Part shown: piece after piece, positions 5,076-15,215 of the stretch
Layout: each line of letters begins with the position of its first letter
Numbering within the stretch: the first letter of the stretch is position 1
IMG/VR virus record: IMGVR_UViG_2606217102_000016
DNA: 22,185 bases
Origin: a virus
Taxonomy: Duplodnaviria > Heunggongvirae > Uroviricota > Caudoviricetes
Direction: 5' to 3' (one strand)
Position numbers and translations under genes: made by a program
Notes under the pieces: generated by a model
The model's input: the letters and a program-made list of their open reading frames with translations, nothing else
Told to the model about the DNA's origin: nothing
Databases searched by the model: none

Positions 5076-6103
<1,028 letters not shown>

Positions 6104-6216: not shown

Positions 6217-6477
6217 ATGGATTACACAAATCTACCTAAACAAACTTTTGCTGATTTAATCGCACTCAGGCAAGCAGTCGTAGCTCTAATCAACTTGTTG
6301 CCGGAGAAGGAAAAGGAATTAGTTAAAGCGCTTCTTAACAGAACTGCCGCCGATTTTTCATCATATCCACTGACAGATGACCTTGCGGACCTTCCTGAAT
6401 TAATTGCAGCGTCCGCCAATAAGCTTACTGAAGAGATTTACCCTCCTCAAAAATCTTCACAAAATTCCTGCGAGTAA
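6217..6477 (+). CDS. Hypothetical 86-aa ORF on the opposite strand inside the lysis cassette (weak call)
   Basis: ATG at 6217 with GAGG 6 nt upstream. Translation MDYTNLPKQTFADLIALRQAVVALINLLPEKEKELVKALLNRTAADFSSYPLTDDLADLPELIAASANKL... is helical and protein-like. It overlaps the 3' end of the minus-strand gene 6425..6976 by ~50 nt. Confidence 0.25.
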   Translation: MDYTNLPKQTFADLIALRQAVVALINLLPEKEKELVKALLNRTAADFSSYPLTDDLADLPELIAASANKLTEEIYPPQKSSQNSCE

Positions 6478-6976
6478 CTTCAATGCAATAATCGTAAAAC
6501 GCCGCAAACTGCTCATCGCGGCGTTTTTTTTCATCTTCAGAAGGAATCAGCACCGACAATTTTTTATTCAGATCAGCGACGCTGCCCTCCAGTTTTTCAA
6601 TGGGCGATTCAATATCATCTTTTTCTGACCGCAATGCCGTCGGTGGCGTCTTCAGAGAACCAGTAATTCTTCCCGGTAGCTTTCCTTTGTAGGTTATCCA
6701 CACATTCTGCGCCTCTAAAATTATGGGGCGCTTTTCCGGCGACTGCTCATCCCCTTCACATAACCCGGCAGCAACATCCAGGAAGACCTGTCTGATGCTC
6801 CTTCTGGCTGCTGCCTCATAAAACTCCAGCGCGGCACCTTCAACACGGTCCAGCGAGATGTCCAGGTCAAAAATTTCACCGTCAAAGTGTTTTTTGTCCC
6901 GTAAGGCTACAGTTACCGCCACTTTATTCTCAAAATTGCGAACTCCTTTCACAACCAGTTCATAGTCTTGAGTCAT
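6425..6976 (-). CDS. Hypothetical protein between holin and endolysin (183 aa)
   Basis: ATG at 6976 lies 5 nt after the holin stop, with a GAGAG SD. The position is that of ydfR in Qin, but this protein is longer than I remember YdfR to be. No motif recognised. Confidence 0.6.
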   Translation of the reverse strand: MTQDYELVVKGVRNFENKVAVTVALRDKKHFDGEIFDLDISLDRVEGAALEFYEAAARRSIRQVFLDVAAGLCEGDEQSPEKRPIILEAQNVWITYKGKLPGRITGSLKTPPTALRSEKDDIESPIEKLEGSVADLNKKLSVLIPSEDEKKRRDEQFAAFYDYCIEVTRRNFVKIFEEGKSLQ

Positions 6977-6980
6977 TGGA

Positions 6981-7196
6981 TTACTCTCTTCTCGCAACCT
7001 TACGCCTGTCTTCTTTAATCTTGAAATAAAGGTTTGTCAGATACGTCAGCATGCCAAATACCAGACTACCCAATACACCTATTGCCGCCCACTGTGAGGG
7101 CGTGACTTTATCGAGCAACTGTAAAAACCAGTAGCCAGCACTGCCTGCAGAGGTGCTGTAGGCGATGCCCGTTGTTAACTTATCCATGGATTTCAT
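6981..7196 (-). CDS. Class II holin / pinholin (phage 21 S-like), dual-start motif
   Basis: Translation [71 protein letters not shown] (71 aa) closely matches my memory of S21/EssQ. Two starts (M1 at 7196, M4 at 7187) give the antiholin/holin pair. A strong SD GGAGGTGAGG precedes it. The track ORF 6981..7280 is an in-frame upstream extension. Confidence 0.85.
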
Positions 7197-7286
7197 AGCC
7201 TCACCTCCGCAGATAACGGATGGTGTACACGGTTTGGTTCGAAGAAGGAAAGAAGTTACATTAGCGTAAGGCCCGAACATCTATTC

Positions 7287-7317
7287 AAAAAGAAAAACGC
7301 CAGCAATTATTCTGGCG
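7287..7317 (-). terminator. Candidate rho-independent terminator downstream of the AraC-family gene
   Basis: On the minus strand CGCCAG-AATAATTG-CTGGCG is followed by TTTTTCTTTTT. It lies 70 nt downstream of the AraC-family gene stop and ~90 nt upstream of the holin start. Confidence 0.5.
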
Positions 7318-7386
7318 TAGCTAAAAATATCGTATAATCTTACACTTCAAAAAATAACTTTATAAAATACCATCACATCATATCTT

Positions 7387-8100
7387 CTAAGAAAATCTTG
7401 ATAAATATTGGCGCGGAGGCACACCAAAATATCCTCTAAAAACACTTACAAAATATGATGCATTGTCATACCCGCATATTCCCGCCACCTTGCCGACAGT
7501 ATGGTTACTGTAGATCAATAATCTTTGCGCCATCATCATTCGTTCTTCAAGAATTAATTTACTAAACGATAATCCTTCGTCTTTTAATTTTCTTTTTAAC
7601 AAACTCTCGCTCATATATAATCTTGAAGATATATCACAAAGTCTCCATGACGCTGAGATATCCGAGTGAATAATAGCCTTAACTTTACAACCTAAGCTAT
7701 TAAGACTTCCGAACAAAAAACTTTGCACTATTTTCTCTGAAGATAAGACAGCAAGACATGCAAGTGATATTTGATTTCTAACTACATCCACGGTTTTGCT
7801 ATCACAATTCAAGCATGCAACCAAGTTCCTTAACAATGAAAAATCTTCACATTCTACTATCAAGTATGACGGATAAAACCTTCTTACAGAAAAAGGTGAG
7901 AGTGTGTAGTTTTTAAAGAAATCATTAACTGTTTTCTCCTCAACATCTACGATCATTAGATGATCTGTATTTGACGAAAAAAGATCTTTTAAATTGTATT
8001 CAATGAGGACAGCATTTCCTTTTTTAAACAAAATATCTTCTTTACCAATTCGGACACCAAACGAGTTCAACACCAAAATGATAGAACATATGTATGGCAT
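7387..8100 (-). CDS. AraC/XylS-family transcriptional regulator (cargo gene)
   Basis: The C-terminal ~100 aa carry the two AraC-type HTH units (...WRLCDISSRLYMSESLLKRKLKDEGLSFSKLILEERMMMAQRLLIYSNHTVGKVAGICGYDNASYFVSVFRGYFGVPPRQY). The gene is very AT-rich. ATG at 8100 with an AGGTGG SD; the track start at 8109 is GTG. Confidence 0.8.
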   Translation of the reverse strand: MPYICSIILVLNSFGVRIGKEDILFKKGNAVLIEYNLKDLFSSNTDHLMIVDVEEKTVNDFFKNYTLSPFSVRRFYPSYLIVECEDFSLLRNLVACLNCDSKTVDVVRNQISLACLAVLSSEKIVQSFLFGSLNSLGCKVKAIIHSDISASWRLCDISSRLYMSESLLKRKLKDEGLSFSKLILEERMMMAQRLLIYSNHTVGKVAGICGYDNASYFVSVFRGYFGVPPRQYLSRFS

Positions 8101-8506
8101 ATTATCCACCTGATATCATTGGGGTTACACCAGGTAAGTATAGGTGGAAAATCAATATTCGCCAGTTCAACAATAAGGAAAATCTCATTGCATCACAACT
8201 ATAAAACCATGTGTTTAACTCACAAAAAACAAATCATTAAACTAATCTGTTATATTATAATAGCTGCGTGCAATAATAATATTATATGCTCTTAATATTC
8301 ACTTGAAATATCTTCATATAAAAACAGATTGAATAAAATCTTTTGGGGCTGGTATGTTTACCAACATTAAATTGCATCTCAATGTTTTCTTTAGCGTGAA
8401 CAGGATTTTTATACAAACTGACACTATGGGCATCATAGCGTAGTTTTTACGATTGTAAATATCCTGCATACAGGAACTCATCACTTTCAGATGATATCGC
8501 ATACAG

Positions 8507-9466
8507 TTAATTCACCATCAGTCTTAGAGCCAGTTCTTCCGGATAGGGATCGAAGTAATTCTGTGTAAGCAAGTAATCATTAGGATACTCACCCAGATAA
8601 TGCTTCAGCAGAGTCAACGGCGCAAGAAGAGGCAATGTGCCAAAGCGATAGTTAAGTATAACCTCGCTCAACTCTTTACGCTGGCGTGTACTTAAGTAAT
8701 TACTAAAATACCCCTGTATATGCATCAGCACATTCGTGTGATTTTTACGTGATGCTGGTTTTCTGAGAATCGCCATCAGATTATCACGATACACCTCAAA
8801 GTATGATTCAAGGTCCGCCCACTCGTGTATTGCAGCCACAAATGGTCCCATATCTTTATAGCCTGCCTGGCTATGCGCCAACAACTGAAGCTTATAACGA
8901 CTATGAAAAGCTAATAACTCTCTTCTTGATAATTTCTCCTTGTAAAGATGATTGAGCTCATGCAAAGCAAAAACTCTTTCAATAAAATTCTCACGAAGCA
9001 CTGGATCATGTAATCGCCCATCCTCTTCAACCGGTAGCCAGGAAAACTTTTCCATCAAAGTGCTCGTAAATAGTCCCACTCCATCTTTACGACCTCGATT
9101 ACCATTTTCATCATAGACACGCACGCGCTCCATGCCACAGCTGGGAGATTTAGCACAAACCACAAACCCCGATACATCCTTTAATTTGTCCATATAAGAA
9201 CGACTAAACTCTGTCATTCTCTCTGTCACATCCTCATTCTGGTCGTGGCTGAAACACATCCGTATATTTCCTTGCTTCGAGCGCACAAGTCGTAGAGCAG
9301 GACGCGGAACTGGCAGCCCTATAGCCATTTCCGGACATACTGGTCTGAATGTTACCCATTCCACTAATTTGTCCATTAAAAAGTCATCTCTTTTGTGACC
9401 ACCATCAAAACGAACAGCAGAACCGCCCAAACAACCGCTGATCCCAATCACAGGTTTTTTTATCAT
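8507..9466 (-). CDS. DUF523 (TudS-like, putative 4Fe-4S) + DUF1722 (YbgA-like) two-domain protein (cargo gene)
   Basis: The N-terminus MIKKPVIGISGCLGGSAVRFDGGHKRDDF... has the DUF523 Cys-containing signature as I remember it from TudS/YbbK-like proteins. The C-terminal half is alpha-helical and of DUF1722 size. ATG at 9466 with a GGAGG SD. Confidence 0.7.
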   Translation of the reverse strand: MIKKPVIGISGCLGGSAVRFDGGHKRDDFLMDKLVEWVTFRPVCPEMAIGLPVPRPALRLVRSKQGNIRMCFSHDQNEDVTERMTEFSRSYMDKLKDVSGFVVCAKSPSCGMERVRVYDENGNRGRKDGVGLFTSTLMEKFSWLPVEEDGRLHDPVLRENFIERVFALHELNHLYKEKLSRRELLAFHSRYKLQLLAHSQAGYKDMGPFVAAIHEWADLESYFEVYRDNLMAILRKPASRKNHTNVLMHIQGYFSNYLSTRQRKELSEVILNYRFGTLPLLAPLTLLKHYLGEYPNDYLLTQNYFDPYPEELALRLMVN

Positions 9467-9658
9467 TTCCTCCCCCTTGACTAATTCATTAACACATAAA
9501 CTTTGTAGTGCACGGACTAAATTGCCTTTCTGGCTTCATCACTGACAATTTTTCTGTTATTGACTATTCCTAATATAGTAGGAAAGTTCTTTAAGTGATC
9601 GGTCGTACTCATCTATCTTTCATACTTACTCTCAACTATCAAAAGTACAGGATTTATT

Positions 9659-10183
9659 ATGAAGTTATGGCCTGTGTTGACTGGCATTGCACTCTCTTTC
9701 ACTCTTATAGCATGTAAGGCCCCGACACCACCTAAAGGTGTGCAGCCGATTACAAATTTTGACGCCAACCGCTACCTCGGAAAATGGTATGAAATAGCTC
9801 GCCTCGAGAACTGGTTCGAACGTGGTCTGGAACAGGTCAGCGCTACTTATGAAAAACGGAACGACGGAGGGATTCGCGTACTTAACCGTGGATACGATCC
9901 AACGAAAAACAAATGGAGCGAGAGCGAAGGTAAAGCATACTTTACTGGAGATACTAAAACTGCAGCGTTGAAAGTTTCGTTTTTTGGCCCCTTCTATGGT
10001 GGCTATAATGTAATCAAACTGGATGATGAGTATAAGTATGCTCTTGTCAGTGGTCCGAACAGAGAATACCTATGGATTCTGGCAAGGACCCAAACTATTC
10101 CAGATAATGTAAAAGCAGACTATGTGCGTACCGCTCAAAAGTTGGGATTCAATGTCAATGAACTATTATGGGTTAAACAATAA
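9659..10183 (+). CDS. Bacterial lipocalin, Blc-like outer-membrane lipoprotein (cargo gene)
   Basis: Translation has a lipoprotein signal with lipobox LIAC, then NFDANRYLGKWYEIARLENWFERGLEQVSATY...KAYFTGDTKTAALKVSFFGPFYGGYNVIKLDDEYKYALVSGPNREYLWILARTQ, which parallels E. coli Blc motif for motif but is clearly divergent (a paralogue, not the chromosomal blc). Confidence 0.85.
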   Translation: MKLWPVLTGIALSFTLIACKAPTPPKGVQPITNFDANRYLGKWYEIARLENWFERGLEQVSATYEKRNDGGIRVLNRGYDPTKNKWSESEGKAYFTGDTKTAALKVSFFGPFYGGYNVIKLDDEYKYALVSGPNREYLWILARTQTIPDNVKADYVRTAQKLGFNVNELLWVKQ

Positions 10184-10211
10184 AATCCCCACCCGAAATG
10201 ATACTTATTAG

Positions 10212-10238
10212 AAAAAAACCAGCCTTTGGGGAGGCTGG
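10212..10238 (-). terminator. Candidate tR'-like intrinsic terminator ~100 nt downstream of Q
   Basis: On the minus strand CCAGCCT-CCCCAA-AGGCTGG is followed by TTTTTTT. It lies between the Q stop (10339) and the convergent lipocalin gene. An A-run on the other side makes it potentially bidirectional. Confidence 0.5.
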
Positions 10239-10338
10239 CTAAATCAGGAAACAAGCTGTTATATGATAATAACTACGTTGCGATTCCAACATTTAAAATG
10301 TTAGACTAATGAAAATCAGACAGCAACTTTTCCTTTAA

Positions 10339-10716
10339 TTATTTCGAACAATCAGCATCCATCTCCAATCGGAGATCCAACACCATCAGCATGCCCTCCA
10401 CTACGCCCTCAGCTTTCTGGAGCATCCTGCCAACCCAACAATCAGATCGCCCATGCTTACGTGCAAGCGCCATAAAAGTCATGCCGCCGACATAATAGTC
10501 CACCAATAAATCATGTAAATCGCTGTTGTTTTTTTTCAGGCGAGCCATACATTCACAAATGATCATCGCGTCATCGTCACAGCATTGCGGACGAGATCTT
10601 ACTTTTGAAGGAATTAATCCCTTAAAACCGGCGGCAATGGACGACCAGGTCACATCTTCATGATTATTAGCCGCCCATGCCCCCCAACGCTCAAGAACCA
10701 TCTGAATATCACGCAT
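10339..10716 (-). CDS. Late-gene antiterminator Q (QuuD/QuuQ-like)
   Basis: Translation from the ATG at 10716, [88 protein letters not shown]..., matches the lambdoid Q family of E. coli cryptic prophages as I remember it. The track start at 10731 is TTG. Confidence 0.8.
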
Positions 10717-10733
10717 CAACTTACTCCACAAAA

Positions 10734-11783
10734 TTAGGCCAGCACACCAATTGCCAGCGCGCGATCGATAAATCGAAAAATCAGCTCCAGTTGGGAGCCA
10801 TACTTCTCTTCAAATGCCACGGTATCCGTATGCAACTCGTCGTGATGCTTTCTGCACAAAGGCAAAACAAAGAGATCATGTGCTTTGGTTCCCATTCCGC
10901 CTTGCCCGTGACCAATCAGATGATGCGGATCGTCGGCTGGCATACCGCAGCAAGCACACGGCTGTGTCTTAACCCAGCGTGTGTATTTCTCCTTAACCCA
11001 CCGGTGACGTTTAGGCAGCTTCATGAAAGATTCCGGAGACTCTGGATCAACGGTGATGCTTACCACCGTCTTTTCCTGTGATGGGTTTTGTTGGTGGTGG
11101 GCGTGAGGCAACGGTGCAAGATTTTTTGTGCGCTGTTTCAATATGCTGGTGGCGGTCTGCTCTCCCGGTACGATGTCGCTTTCGCGGTACACCGAGCAGA
11201 TTTTTTCCGCTGGTAATCCCAGCGAGCGACGTAATACCGCTTCCGGTAGCGCGTCCGCCAGCTGATTGCGGACCGCCCACCAGGATAATTCAGCCAGAGA
11301 TAATTCACGCTCCTGCGTACCGCTTATTGCGTGACCGATGACGTCAATCATCCATGCTGACAGGTTTTGATGAGCAAGTTGCTCGAGTGATTCGGATGTC
11401 TGGTCACGCAGCTGGTTGTCGCAGTGCCAGCACAACACCATTGCGCCGGTACCATATCGGTGAATAACGGTTTCGCTGTGATGATAATCGCCGTGTGGCC
11501 ACTGGCAGGATTTAATATGGCGCAACAGCCAGTCAGACAATGCACCAGCACCACCAGCAGCACGAATTACCCGTGCGTTACTGAAAAACGGCAGCAATGT
11601 TTTGTCTTCCACCAGCGGCTGGCGAACGGCAGGAACGACCCCGGACGGCAGATTACGCATGCTTTTCGGTTCCGGCTCCACCAGTACCCGGGTATTGTGG
11701 AATACCGGCATGGATTCACGGCCCGGCTTAACGACCACCAGCCCGAGTTCCGGTACCAGAACAGGTCGAAGTAATACCCGCAC
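10734..11783 (-). CDS. DUF968-family protein (YdfU/YbcN-like) with a C-terminal Cys/His cluster
   Basis: 349 aa. GTG start at 11783 with a strong SD GGAGGT; an alternative ATG lies at 11711. The C-terminus [18 protein letters not shown]...[10 protein letters not shown] looks like a zinc-binding or HNH-like motif. Size and position (between Q and hok) match Qin ydfU as I recall it. Confidence 0.7.
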
Positions 11784-13427: not shown

Positions 13428-15215
13428 ATGGACGATATTAATATCAGCCTCGACGAACTTAACACTATTGATTTATCCCCCTTAATCCAGAGTAAGCTGC
13501 CAGTTACCTGCTTTGATATCACAAAGTATCTTTCTAGCCTAGGTGATGGAAGAGCGGAGATAAGACTGCTAACCCATATTTGCGGTTTTCACTTTCGTCC
13601 CGAAAATCCACAGGTACCATTTGGTCCGTGCTTTCAAAGCAGCCAAGGTAGATCTGCAATTCCGGATGACATTAACGGGTTGTCGCTGGAGGTACTTTCT
13701 CAATTTTGCCCGACGATAGAGCTACCCGAACTTCAAGCTCGTATTGCTGATACACTTTGGGTTCGTAAAATTGGTGGAATCCGTTTTCCTTTGCTGGCAG
13801 TCCGTGCTTATTATGCGTCCAGTATAGCTATTATGACATCGCAAGGGACGTGGGTTAGTGCTTTAGAACGCCTAGAGCGTGCGCTTAGGCTGTGTTGTTT
13901 TTTTCGAAAGCATACTGATTTCAGGGATGAATTTGATCAGCTTTCGGCACATCTACTAGCAGAGTATGAACGTACCAGAGAACAAGGCGATTCACCTTAT
14001 CCGCTGCGACTCCTGCAACTCGATATCGACTGTAAAGTGAGTGAGCCATCTTTTATTGCCCAGGAACTCCTGTTTCTGACAAAAAACTATCTGGCTCAAA
14101 AATTATTTTCATTTGCCGTCGATGCCTGTAAAACCGCAATCCCGATTGCGAATAGGTGCTGTGACAGAGATACACAGTTTGAATTCTGGCGGCTTCTTGC
14201 CGATACACATCTGGAAGAGTCAAAATTCCAAGATGGCGGTATGATTTCGGCAGCCTGCATGCAGAATGCTATTGAAGCACTGGCTAATATTCCAGGAACC
14301 CGAATAGAACGTCTTGCGCTGTATGAAGAAATGCGTGATTACCAAATCGAATCCCGTCACCAGATGTCTATCCTTCAGTCTCCCCCTCAAGATATTAGTG
14401 AGATTGTCCATCAAGCCAAGAGTCGGGTAGTCGGAAGAGATTTGTTTGATATGGTTTTCAGACTTGCGATGCTGGTCTGTCGGCCAACCAGCATTGAGAG
14501 ACTTAAGGCTCAAGCAATAGAACAAAAGGCCAACAGCATAGCTTGGATGTTTGGATCAACACATATTGATCATGAGGGAATGACACTTGCTCGCATACCC
14601 GCAGGATTGGGGATTGATGATGCAAATGGGGCAGTTATTTGGCCCATAATGATGACGAGAATGCGTATCGACCATGAGTTGGCAGTAGCTGGGCAAATTA
14701 TTCCTGCTACAGATGAGATCACAATGAAATATCCAATCTCGGAGGCGTTTTTTCGCGATATGTTCATCAATCATCCCTTCATCCCGTTTGGGCATGAAGA
14801 GTTTTTCATCAAGGGTATGGTTTGCGGTTTCAATGGAGATTTTATGACGGCATGCCACGTGTTGATTCCCCAGCTCGAAAATAGTCTGAGATATGTGGCT
14901 AAAATTAAAGGTGAGGAACCATCGCAGCTTCACGGGGACGGTTCGCAAGAGCGAAATGGACTCAAGGGATTACTAGATAATCCACTGATTATTGAAGCTT
15001 TCGGCGTAGACATAATTGGCAATCTTCAGGCCTTACTGGTAGATAAAATCTATGGTGATTTACGAAATCAACTAGCTCACGGATATGTGCCTGCCGGTTA
15101 CTACAACCAACCTCCCTGCATTTTTGCATGGTGGCTTGTATTGCACATTCTAATGAACCCTACGGCGAGATACTGGCAAGCCACTTATGGCCAAGAGAGT
15201 GAGGCTCAGACTTAA
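13428..15215 (+). CDS. Large orphan protein (595 aa) with a C-terminal HEPN-like Rx4H motif; candidate defence or abortive-infection moron
   Basis: Long ORF with ATG at 13428 and SD AAGGTGA 7 nt upstream. It is on the opposite strand to every flanking prophage gene and is bounded by non-coding DNA on both sides. No P-loop is visible. Near the C-terminus, ...DKIYGDLRNQLAHGYVPAG... fits the HEPN R-x4-6-H consensus. No other domain recognised by eye. Confidence 0.8.
   Translation: MDDINISLDELNTIDLSPLIQSKLPVTCFDITKYLSSLGDGRAEIRLLTHICGFHFRPENPQVPFGPCFQSSQGRSAIPDDINGLSLEVLSQFCPTIELPELQARIADTLWVRKIGGIRFPLLAVRAYYASSIAIMTSQGTWVSALERLERALRLCCFFRKHTDFRDEFDQLSAHLLAEYERTREQGDSPYPLRLLQLDIDCKVSEPSFIAQELLFLTKNYLAQKLFSFAVDACKTAIPIANRCCDRDTQFEFWRLLADTHLEESKFQDGGMISAACMQNAIEALANIPGTRIERLALYEEMRDYQIESRHQMSILQSPPQDISEIVHQAKSRVVGRDLFDMVFRLAMLVCRPTSIERLKAQAIEQKANSIAWMFGSTHIDHEGMTLARIPAGLGIDDANGAVIWPIMMTRMRIDHELAVAGQIIPATDEITMKYPISEAFFRDMFINHPFIPFGHEEFFIKGMVCGFNGDFMTACHVLIPQLENSLRYVAKIKGEEPSQLHGDGSQERNGLKGLLDNPLIIEAFGVDIIGNLQALLVDKIYGDLRNQLAHGYVPAGYYNQPPCIFAWWLVLHILMNPTARYWQATYGQESEAQT

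Follow-up and report, generated by a model that had tools for sequence, protein, structure and literature searches.

A lipocalin gene, rudS and an AraC-type regulator gene as a two-module cargo segment between Q and holin of an Escherichia coli prophage

Three cargo genes at the Q-to-holin junction

The DNA analyzed here, IMG/VR record IMGVR_UViG_2606217102_000016 (Caudoviricetes; 22,185 nucleotides, the whole of which is called the window), carries three genes between the antiterminator gene Q and the holin gene of a lambdoid prophage (positions 7287-10338): a lipocalin gene on the plus strand, and a DUF523+DUF1722 gene and an AT-rich AraC-family regulator gene on the minus strand. As an initial annotation of the sequence had proposed, all three are intact and lie between Q with its terminator and the holin. 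That annotation regarded them as one island, however, and we show here that the segment is a mosaic. The lipocalin gene (blc) and the DUF523+DUF1722 gene (rudS) form a pair that was captured from an enterobacterial chromosome and travels with Q. The regulator gene (araC) is a moron in its own right and goes along with the holin. This two-module structure rests on three lines of evidence that agree, namely chromosomal relatives of the pair, relatives of araC that occur alone, and the pattern of sequence divergence.

Positions 7000-10800 are 100% identical to the chromosome of E. coli AST19 and of other strains. The annotated neighbors ydfK, pinQ, cspI, rzpQ, rrrQ, essQ, ydfU, rem, hokD, dicB and an integrase identify the prophage as Qin-like lambdoid, and it is defective (cryptic): the terminase is truncated, and there are also a Lom fragment and an IS3 element. 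The late direction of the phage is the minus strand. Its Q is 96.7-98.4% identical to Q of the phages 1H12 and IdasGreatGrand and 85% identical to Q of the porin-carrying phage 4A7. The features of the junction are collected in Table 1.

Comparison of the junction among related prophages, proposed together with the initial annotation, delimits the cargo. In phage 4A7, of which the holin region is 91% identical in DNA, a single antisense porin gene of OmpD/NmpC type sits at the same junction, a porin gene is also found there in many other phages, and K-12 Qin carries cspB/cspF at this place. DNA homology with 4A7 ends at 7216 and restarts at 10357, and homology with K-12 Qin breaks at 7225. Thus, the exchangeable segment spans from just upstream of the holin Shine-Dalgarno (SD) sequence to the 3' end of Q, including the tR' region. 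The three genes are therefore cargo, with conserved flanks and differing content, as had been suspected. The annotation would have been contradicted by the same three genes being conserved core lysis genes of the phage family; this is not so, and a core lysis function is ruled out by sister phages that have Q and holin of these families but are without all three genes. The slot is the one that holds stxAB, the nmpC/ompD/lc porins or cspB/cspF in other phages and prophages, likewise between Q/tR' and holin with conserved flanks and exchangeable content. The content differs, and neither a toxin nor a virulence factor is present in the island. The lipocalin gene is antisense like the porin genes, and the stx genes of Stx phages run in sense with the late transcript, like rudS and araC here.

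Table 1. Features of the Q-to-holin junction (positions in the window)
Feature	Position	Strand	Evidence or remark
Antiterminator Q gene (125 aa, QuuD-like), right anchor	10339..10716	-	PF06530, E 8e-51; RefSeq 'antiterminator Q family protein'
Candidate PR' TTGCTG-17-TAACAT	10298..10326	-	read by eye, weak; under scan threshold
tR'-like intrinsic terminator, downstream of Q	10210..10240	-	hairpin and T-run at 10240-10217
Blc-family lipocalin lipoprotein gene, 174 aa	9659..10183	+	antisense to late transcription
Divergent blc/rudS intergenic region	9467..9658	.	between lipocalin and rudS starts
rudS (DUF523+DUF1722), 319 aa	8507..9466	-	co-oriented with late operon
Candidate araC promoter TTTACA-16-TATGAT	8432..8459	-	10/12 consensus match
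AraC/XylS-family regulator gene, 237 aa, PatE/YdeO-like	7387..8100	-	co-oriented with late operon
Intrinsic terminator after araC	7287..7318	-	about 100 nt before holin start; hairpin 7318-7297
Class II (P21 S-type) holin essQ, left anchor	6981..7196	-	PF04971, E 8.9e-34; RefSeq name essQ

Family searches, which had been recommended for the three proteins, identify a Blc-family lipocalin, RudS and a PatE-like AraC protein. In the DUF523+DUF1722 protein, PF04463 covers residues 7-149 (E 5.8e-40) and PF08349 residues 192-309 (E 9.4e-40), which is the architecture of a TudS/DUF523 domain followed by a C-terminal DUF1722 domain. TudS-DUF1722 fusions are [4Fe-4S] enzymes that take sulfur off tRNA 4-thiouridine (s4U) (Jamontas et al., NAR 2024, PMC11417400). 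Alignment to TudS (6z92) reveals that the [4Fe-4S] ligands Cys12, Cys44 and Cys110 as well as Glu46, Arg55, Ser107 and Ser109 are all present. The cysteines occupy the positions stated for RudS_vir and RudS_ST, and the other four residues correspond to E51, R60, S111 and S113 of RudS_KT, mutation of which abolishes or nearly abolishes activity (PMC11417400). The closest characterized protein is RudS_vir of phage 1H12 (gp66, H3V29_gp66), 91.9% identical and of equal length; together with RudS_ST/ORF319 (STM1389, Salmonella SPI-2) it has the same fusion, the same 319 residues and the same cluster and catalytic residues. Judged by domains and residues, the protein is RudS, a tRNA 4-thiouridine desulfidase with a [4Fe-4S] cluster. 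The initial annotation had taken it for a putative Fe-S enzyme; its 1H12 ortholog had already been assayed: expression of RudS_vir in E. coli lowered tRNA s4U (PMC11417400). This activity is known for the ortholog and predicted for the window allele. Furthermore, RudS of P. putida diminished the growth delay induced by ultraviolet A (UVA) light (PMC11417400). RudS_vir has the same neighbors and the same Q-to-holin position as the window gene, an allele that differs by 8% and resides in a cryptic prophage; the phage context, the neighbors and the presence in E. coli strains are not discussed for RudS (PMC11417400). Among the matches listed there is also an E. coli protein of 403 amino acids (P0029) in which a 98%-identical RudS is joined to a GGDEF domain (PF00990), which may be a genuine fusion or an error of assembly or annotation.

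The lipocalin matches Pfam Lipocalin_2 (E 7.5e-43) and the NCBIfam Blc subfamily (NF007786; 312.6 bits, with the cut-off at 267; positions 1-174 of the 176 in the model are covered), and Blc chains in the PDB match at E 1e-65 (3mbt at E 8e-67). Its N-terminus MKLWPVLTGIALSFTLIAC/KAP contains a signal sequence with the lipobox L-I-A-C, Cys19 and, at +2, Lys and not Asp, the features of a lipoprotein sorted to the outer membrane. From residues placed in this way, the protein is predicted to leave the cytoplasm, receive its lipid at Cys19 and reach the outer membrane, and family membership suggests that in the envelope it probably still binds lipids much as Blc does. Identity is 58.6% to K-12 Blc and 96-97% to phage copies; compared with rudS-linked lipocalins of Enterobacter/Citrobacter-type loci it amounts to 75-80% in most and 68-70% in two outliers. 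By these values the gene belongs to a second, rudS-linked lipocalin lineage rather than being copied from host blc. Phage 1H12 and the Lambda_ev phages carry the same gene, which has been described as a moron ('blc') of lambda-like coliphages from the infant gut (Mathieu et al., 2020, PMC6969025) and is present in more than 50% of 19 lambda-like phages (PMC6969025); RudS_vir came from one of these infant-gut phages. The lipocalin gene shares position and antisense orientation with the OmpD/NmpC-type porin genes of sister phages, and genes for membrane or membrane-binding proteins predominate among the catalogued lambda morons (Mathieu et al., PMC6969025). Both points would fit a superinfection-exclusion or anti-phage module, in which the lipocalin masks or alters a phage receptor and RudS alters tRNA against incoming phages. 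We regard such a module as very improbable. In PADLOC none of the three proteins has a match (E <= 0.1), and the lipocalin resembles common chromosomal lipocalins of enterobacteria (mostly 75-80% identity) and exceeds the Blc cut-off, which argues for conserved housekeeping-type biochemistry.

The regulator has a C-terminal double helix-turn-helix (HTH), with HTH_18 over residues 161-237 (E 2e-16) and HTH_AraC at E 7e-11. Its start is the ATG at 8100 that RefSeq uses and that the alignment with PatE backs; the mechanical start is a GTG at 8109. The best NCBIfam match, YdeO, reaches 112.9 bits against a cut-off of 348, and GadX reaches 89.7 against 500, so that the protein is no equivalog of either. 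It is 29-31% identical to YdeO, AppY and EnvY of K-12, and its DNA-binding domain is nearest to GadX in the PDB. The nearest relative with a link to the literature is ECs_0287 of strain Sakai (47% identity over 237 residues, full-length), the only AraC-type gene of prophage Sp1 at thrW. From its location (Sp1 = OI-8, thrW) and its family we infer that ECs_0287 is PatE (z0321, OI-8/CP-933H), an activator of gadE and hdeAB (PMC10877973). At 47% identity the window protein is not an ortholog, and ECs_0287 lies near the end of its prophage, beside tail-fibre and invertase genes, and not between Q and S; by sequence araC encodes a paralogous relative of PatE only. PatE, PsrA/PsrB of O157:H7 (compared by description only) and YdeO/AppY/EnvY/GadX of K-12 are all small AraC/XylS regulators of about 240-250 residues. 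With the PatE/Psr type the window protein shares an AT-rich, prophage-borne gene, and its similarity over the full length is 47% to the presumed PatE and about 30% to YdeO/AppY/EnvY. The GC content of araC is 33.8%, compared with 46-47% for its neighbors and 43-44% in blc and rudS. Along the sequence GC content falls to 31-36% across 7200-8600, and the 400 bp spacer between rudS and araC has 31% GC.

Two modules with separate histories

When one genome was scanned for each species, 64 loci were recovered; 62 are chromosomal rudS loci of enterobacteria, and the other two are E. coli prophage fragments. The 62 chromosomal loci (66-76% identity of RudS) belong to Citrobacter, Enterobacter, Leclercia, Kluyvera, Klebsiella, Pectobacterium and others. 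A lipocalin gene stands divergently upstream of rudS in 43 of them, and in 36 the layout is blc / merR (MlrA-like) / transthyretin-like / rudS. Direct adjacency of blc and rudS, as in the phage, occurs in two loci, those of Citrobacter sedlakii and Citrobacter sp. JGM124. Nineteen loci are without lipocalin, 16 have rudS with none of the three neighbor genes, and a relative of the AraC gene was found in 0 of the 62. The pairing of lipocalin and RudS, which had looked like a new functional unit, is thus an inherited chromosomal adjacency of Enterobacter- and Citrobacter-type genomes. Enterobacter cloacae-type loci have the same divergent blc/rudS genes, with a lipocalin at mostly 75-80% and a RudS at 66-76% identity; in contrast, the phage pair lies within a late operon, with an unrelated AraC gene coming after it. 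The blc/merR/ttr/rudS type of locus has been proposed to be light-inducible in E. cloacae, to explain the UVA-induced loss of s4U (Jamontas et al., PMC11417400). The phage copy is without the MerR regulator and without the transthyretin-like gene. Its blc/rudS spacer is kept among phage alleles and gives no meaningful alignment to the Citrobacter spacers, so that shared regulatory DNA with chromosomal donors was discarded. A close donor of the pair was not found among the matches listed, where the E. coli prophage cluster (97-98%) is separated by a gap from the other sequences (at most 76%); the RudS protein search comprised the best 120 matches, all of at least 69% identity.

The regulator gene has a different history. 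In other lambdoid prophages, which use different Q families (PF03589 and PF06323), relatives of the AraC protein with 60% and 50% identity occur by themselves between Q and the lysis genes. The 50% relative (L077) has the same SD context, ATCAGGTGGAT, and is followed by a terminator of its own ahead of the holin. Compared with 1H12, the window has diverged at synonymous sites by 0.18 in blc, 0.29 in rudS and 0.26 in Q, but by 0.58 in araC and 0.62 in the holin gene, and identity between the two breaks within the rudS-araC spacer, at 8195-8292. The comparison of junctions therefore yields an internal break in addition to the outer boundaries (7216-7225 and 10357), and the view of the island as a single unit has to be given up in favor of two modules.

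These data also bear on the possibility that AraC is a local regulator of the captured blc-rudS pair that replaces the lost MerR, so that the three genes form one regulatory unit. Chromosomal loci do have a dedicated regulator between blc and rudS that is absent from the phage version. Moreover, rudS was found in 12 phage records and this araC allele group adjoins it in all 12, and the complete arrangement from Q to S is retained in about 91% of the copies in E. coli (954 vs 1047 genomes). Nevertheless, we consider local regulation rather unlikely, given that homologs of 50-60% identity stand alone between Q and holin without blc or rudS, that araC diverges as deeply as the holin and unlike blc-rudS, that not one of the chromosomal rudS loci has such a gene, and that PatE, presumably the nearest characterized relative, acts on host genes.

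The segment is widespread. The full Q-to-holin arrangement (at least 80% of the query covered) is present in 954 of 5426 complete E. coli genomes, blc-rudS in 1151 (~21%) and araC in 973 (~18%); co-occurrence is estimated from these three separate BLAST counts and not per genome. The island is found at the Qin site, at attB-lambda (ybhC) and elsewhere, and one copy resides in a prophage reduced to a few genes. Ratios of nonsynonymous to synonymous substitution (dN/dS) in informative pairs are 0.06-0.23 for blc, 0.11-0.22 for rudS and 0.13-0.26 for araC. Over all three genes, values of 0.06-0.26 indicate purifying selection, by which the genes are maintained as functional. A reading of the segment as pseudogenes or junk is ruled out by these values and by genes intact in about 1000 genomes. 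E. coli has been stated to lack RudS (PMC11417400; 2026 review PMC13602947), and the prophage-borne rudS in more than a thousand complete genomes contradicts this statement. Prophages may consequently determine strain-to-strain differences in tRNA 4-thiouridine, in growth delay by near-ultraviolet (near-UV) light and in the stringent response.

Expression signals and proposed working

Both terminators proposed in the initial annotation are real, each a hairpin with a T-run on the minus strand. The tR'-like hairpin has a 9-bp stem with five G-C pairs and a T7 run (-14.9 kcal/mol, z -3.6), and the araC terminator a 7-bp stem with five G-C pairs and a T-run (-11.3 kcal/mol, z -2.9). The promoter PR' could not be placed with confidence. 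The candidate in Table 1 is below the scan threshold, and the scan lists instead another candidate, TGGAGA-18-AATAAT at 10367->10338. Since the promoter-like scan of the window is at chance level, we did not use its predictions as evidence, save for elements that are kept across diverged alleles. One such element precedes araC. Five alleles share the block TTTACAATCGTAAAAACT.C.CTATGAT, in which no more than two spacer positions vary, and the surrounding spacer, downstream of rudS, is otherwise divergent among them, with indels. We regard the TTTACA-16-TATGAT element within it (8459->8432) as the best candidate for an autonomous araC promoter. In the blc/rudS spacer (9467-9658) no promoter-like site passes the scan, and nothing comparable to the araC element was found for rudS or blc. 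Of the signs looked for in a moron, araC has a convincing terminator, a conserved promoter-like element and an atypical composition, and no promoter was identified for blc or rudS. SOS control was tried and rejected: the intergenic regions contain no LexA-box-like site, the sole match with one mismatch in the island falls inside the rudS coding sequence, and the count for the whole window is barely above chance. Hidden RNA genes were likewise dismissed, with zero tRNA in the window and only a sub-threshold Rfam match on the tR' hairpin. In E. coli PK5 an IS3-family element is inserted in the blc/rudS intergenic region (L081 2632-3845), and IS3 or IS1 elements lie within the island also in strains 97.3, D2, PCN061, I4 and others. 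Such insertions could silence or activate either gene of the pair.

We consider it probable, at roughly two chances in three, that the segment is a composite moron cluster of two independently acquired modules which serves lysogenic conversion. RudS would turn tRNA s4U back to uridine via its [4Fe-4S] cluster, as is known for orthologs, and the loss of s4U would take away the near-UV chromophore behind tRNA cross-linking, growth delay, the ppGpp burst and the stringent response. The AraC protein most likely acts in trans on host promoters, such as those of acid-resistance-type regulons, and not on its neighbors, like PatE, PsrB and AppY; this is suggested by homology and by relatives that occur without blc-rudS. 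AraC regulators encoded by prophages (PatE/Psr/AppY type) are well documented (PMC10877973). Cross-regulation of host genes by a prophage AraC protein, an idea already put forward in the initial annotation, thus has a concrete precedent, because the window protein is a full-length relative (47%) of the presumed PatE; by homology its targets may be of the same kind. In the lysogen the genes would rely on their own signals. Upon induction, Q-modified RNA polymerase would have to cross the 3 kb and the araC terminator to reach the holin, reading rudS and araC in sense and blc in antisense. In this geometry induction should raise RudS and AraC. A coupling of island expression to prophage state, which had been suggested for all three genes, is plausible. 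As far as late transcription is concerned, orientation would permit it for rudS and araC only, blc being antisense to the late transcript.

The same arrangement invites the alternative that RudS, and possibly AraC, serve the lytic cycle of the phage. They would be made only after induction, often by UV, and by erasing s4U RudS would keep tRNA chargeable and dampen the stringent response during virion production. Co-orientation of rudS and araC with Q and the holin between tR' and S is in line with this, as are the lack of a recognizable promoter upstream of rudS, the loss of the native MerR regulator on capture and the presence of the island in plaque-forming phages such as 1H12 and IdasGreatGrand; overexpression of RudS reduces the UVA growth delay (PMC11417400). 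On the other hand, the island is intact and under purifying selection in cryptic prophages that are incapable of lytic growth (the one in the window, with its truncated terminase and IS3, and that of strain B27). Late expression would also follow the UV damage, and RudS acts on s4U prior to cross-linking, activity on cross-linked tRNA not having been reported. We therefore hold a lytic role to be possible but doubtful. With similar reserve, one may think of a tRNA-modification eraser in the Q-dependent late transcript, which after UV induction strips s4U and so keeps translation going or evades a tRNA-directed stress or defence response, with the PatE-like regulator rewiring host stress regulons. 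If this tentative idea were true, roughly one in five E. coli strains would be unlike K-12 in tRNA s4U and in UVA physiology.

Several points weigh against a cluster that serves lysogenic conversion. The absence of a convincing sigma-70 promoter in the blc/rudS spacer means that rudS may be silent in the lysogen, and the promoter-like scan found 13 sites in the window where 11.8 are expected by chance. RudS_vir was the weakest tRNA desulfidase of those assayed, though well expressed (PMC11417400). The chromosomal adjacency of blc and rudS may be historical rather than functional, in view of the 19 loci without lipocalin and the 16 in which rudS is without all three neighbor genes, and the constant co-occurrence of araC with blc-rudS in phages is also predicted if AraC is a local regulator. 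Finally, the identification of ECs_0287 as PatE relies on a review and the Sakai annotation, and 47% identity to PatE is no guarantee of common DNA targets.

Each component has a close known counterpart, and the segment is no new kind of system. The searched literature does not contain the two-module structure, the chromosomal origin of blc-rudS, the arrangement of a lone araC at Q-S or the prevalence in E. coli. As a composite moron cluster, the segment is a clean case of moron assembly, in which a chromosomal pair from a locus proposed for the UVA response was stripped of its regulator and stacked with a separate regulator moron in a transcript required for lysis. The PatE-like AraC protein is an unstudied regulator with several diverged alleles, in a position where induction should switch araC on.

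Neighboring genes and further observations

Further genes of the prophage lie outside the exchangeable segment. Endolysin RrrQ (5570-6103, minus strand) has an N-terminal hydrophobic stretch, which fits a signal-arrest-release (SAR) type endolysin paired with a P21-type (pin)holin, as assumed in the initial annotation. Downstream of the holin, a DUF1327 (YdfR-family) frame (6425-6997, minus strand) of 190 amino acids, compared with 103 in K-12 ydfR, is labeled an incomplete pseudogene by RefSeq. A plus-strand open reading frame of 86 amino acids (6217-6477), annotated as hypothetical protein, overlaps its 3' end. Two contigs (L059 and L064) of a metagenome-assembled genome of 'Candidatus Nanosynbacter sp.' (JARKOR01) contain Q, lipocalin, RudS, AraC and holin at 84-98% identity and almost certainly represent DNA of an E. 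coli prophage that was mis-binned with a Saccharibacteria genome. The window further encodes a DUF4209 protein of 595 amino acids (13428-15215, plus strand), with hokD on one side and the genes of the replication region on the other; K-12 Qin has relBE-ydfV-flxA at this place. The protein has a match at E 3e-102 to PDC-S39, a candidate defence family in PADLOC.

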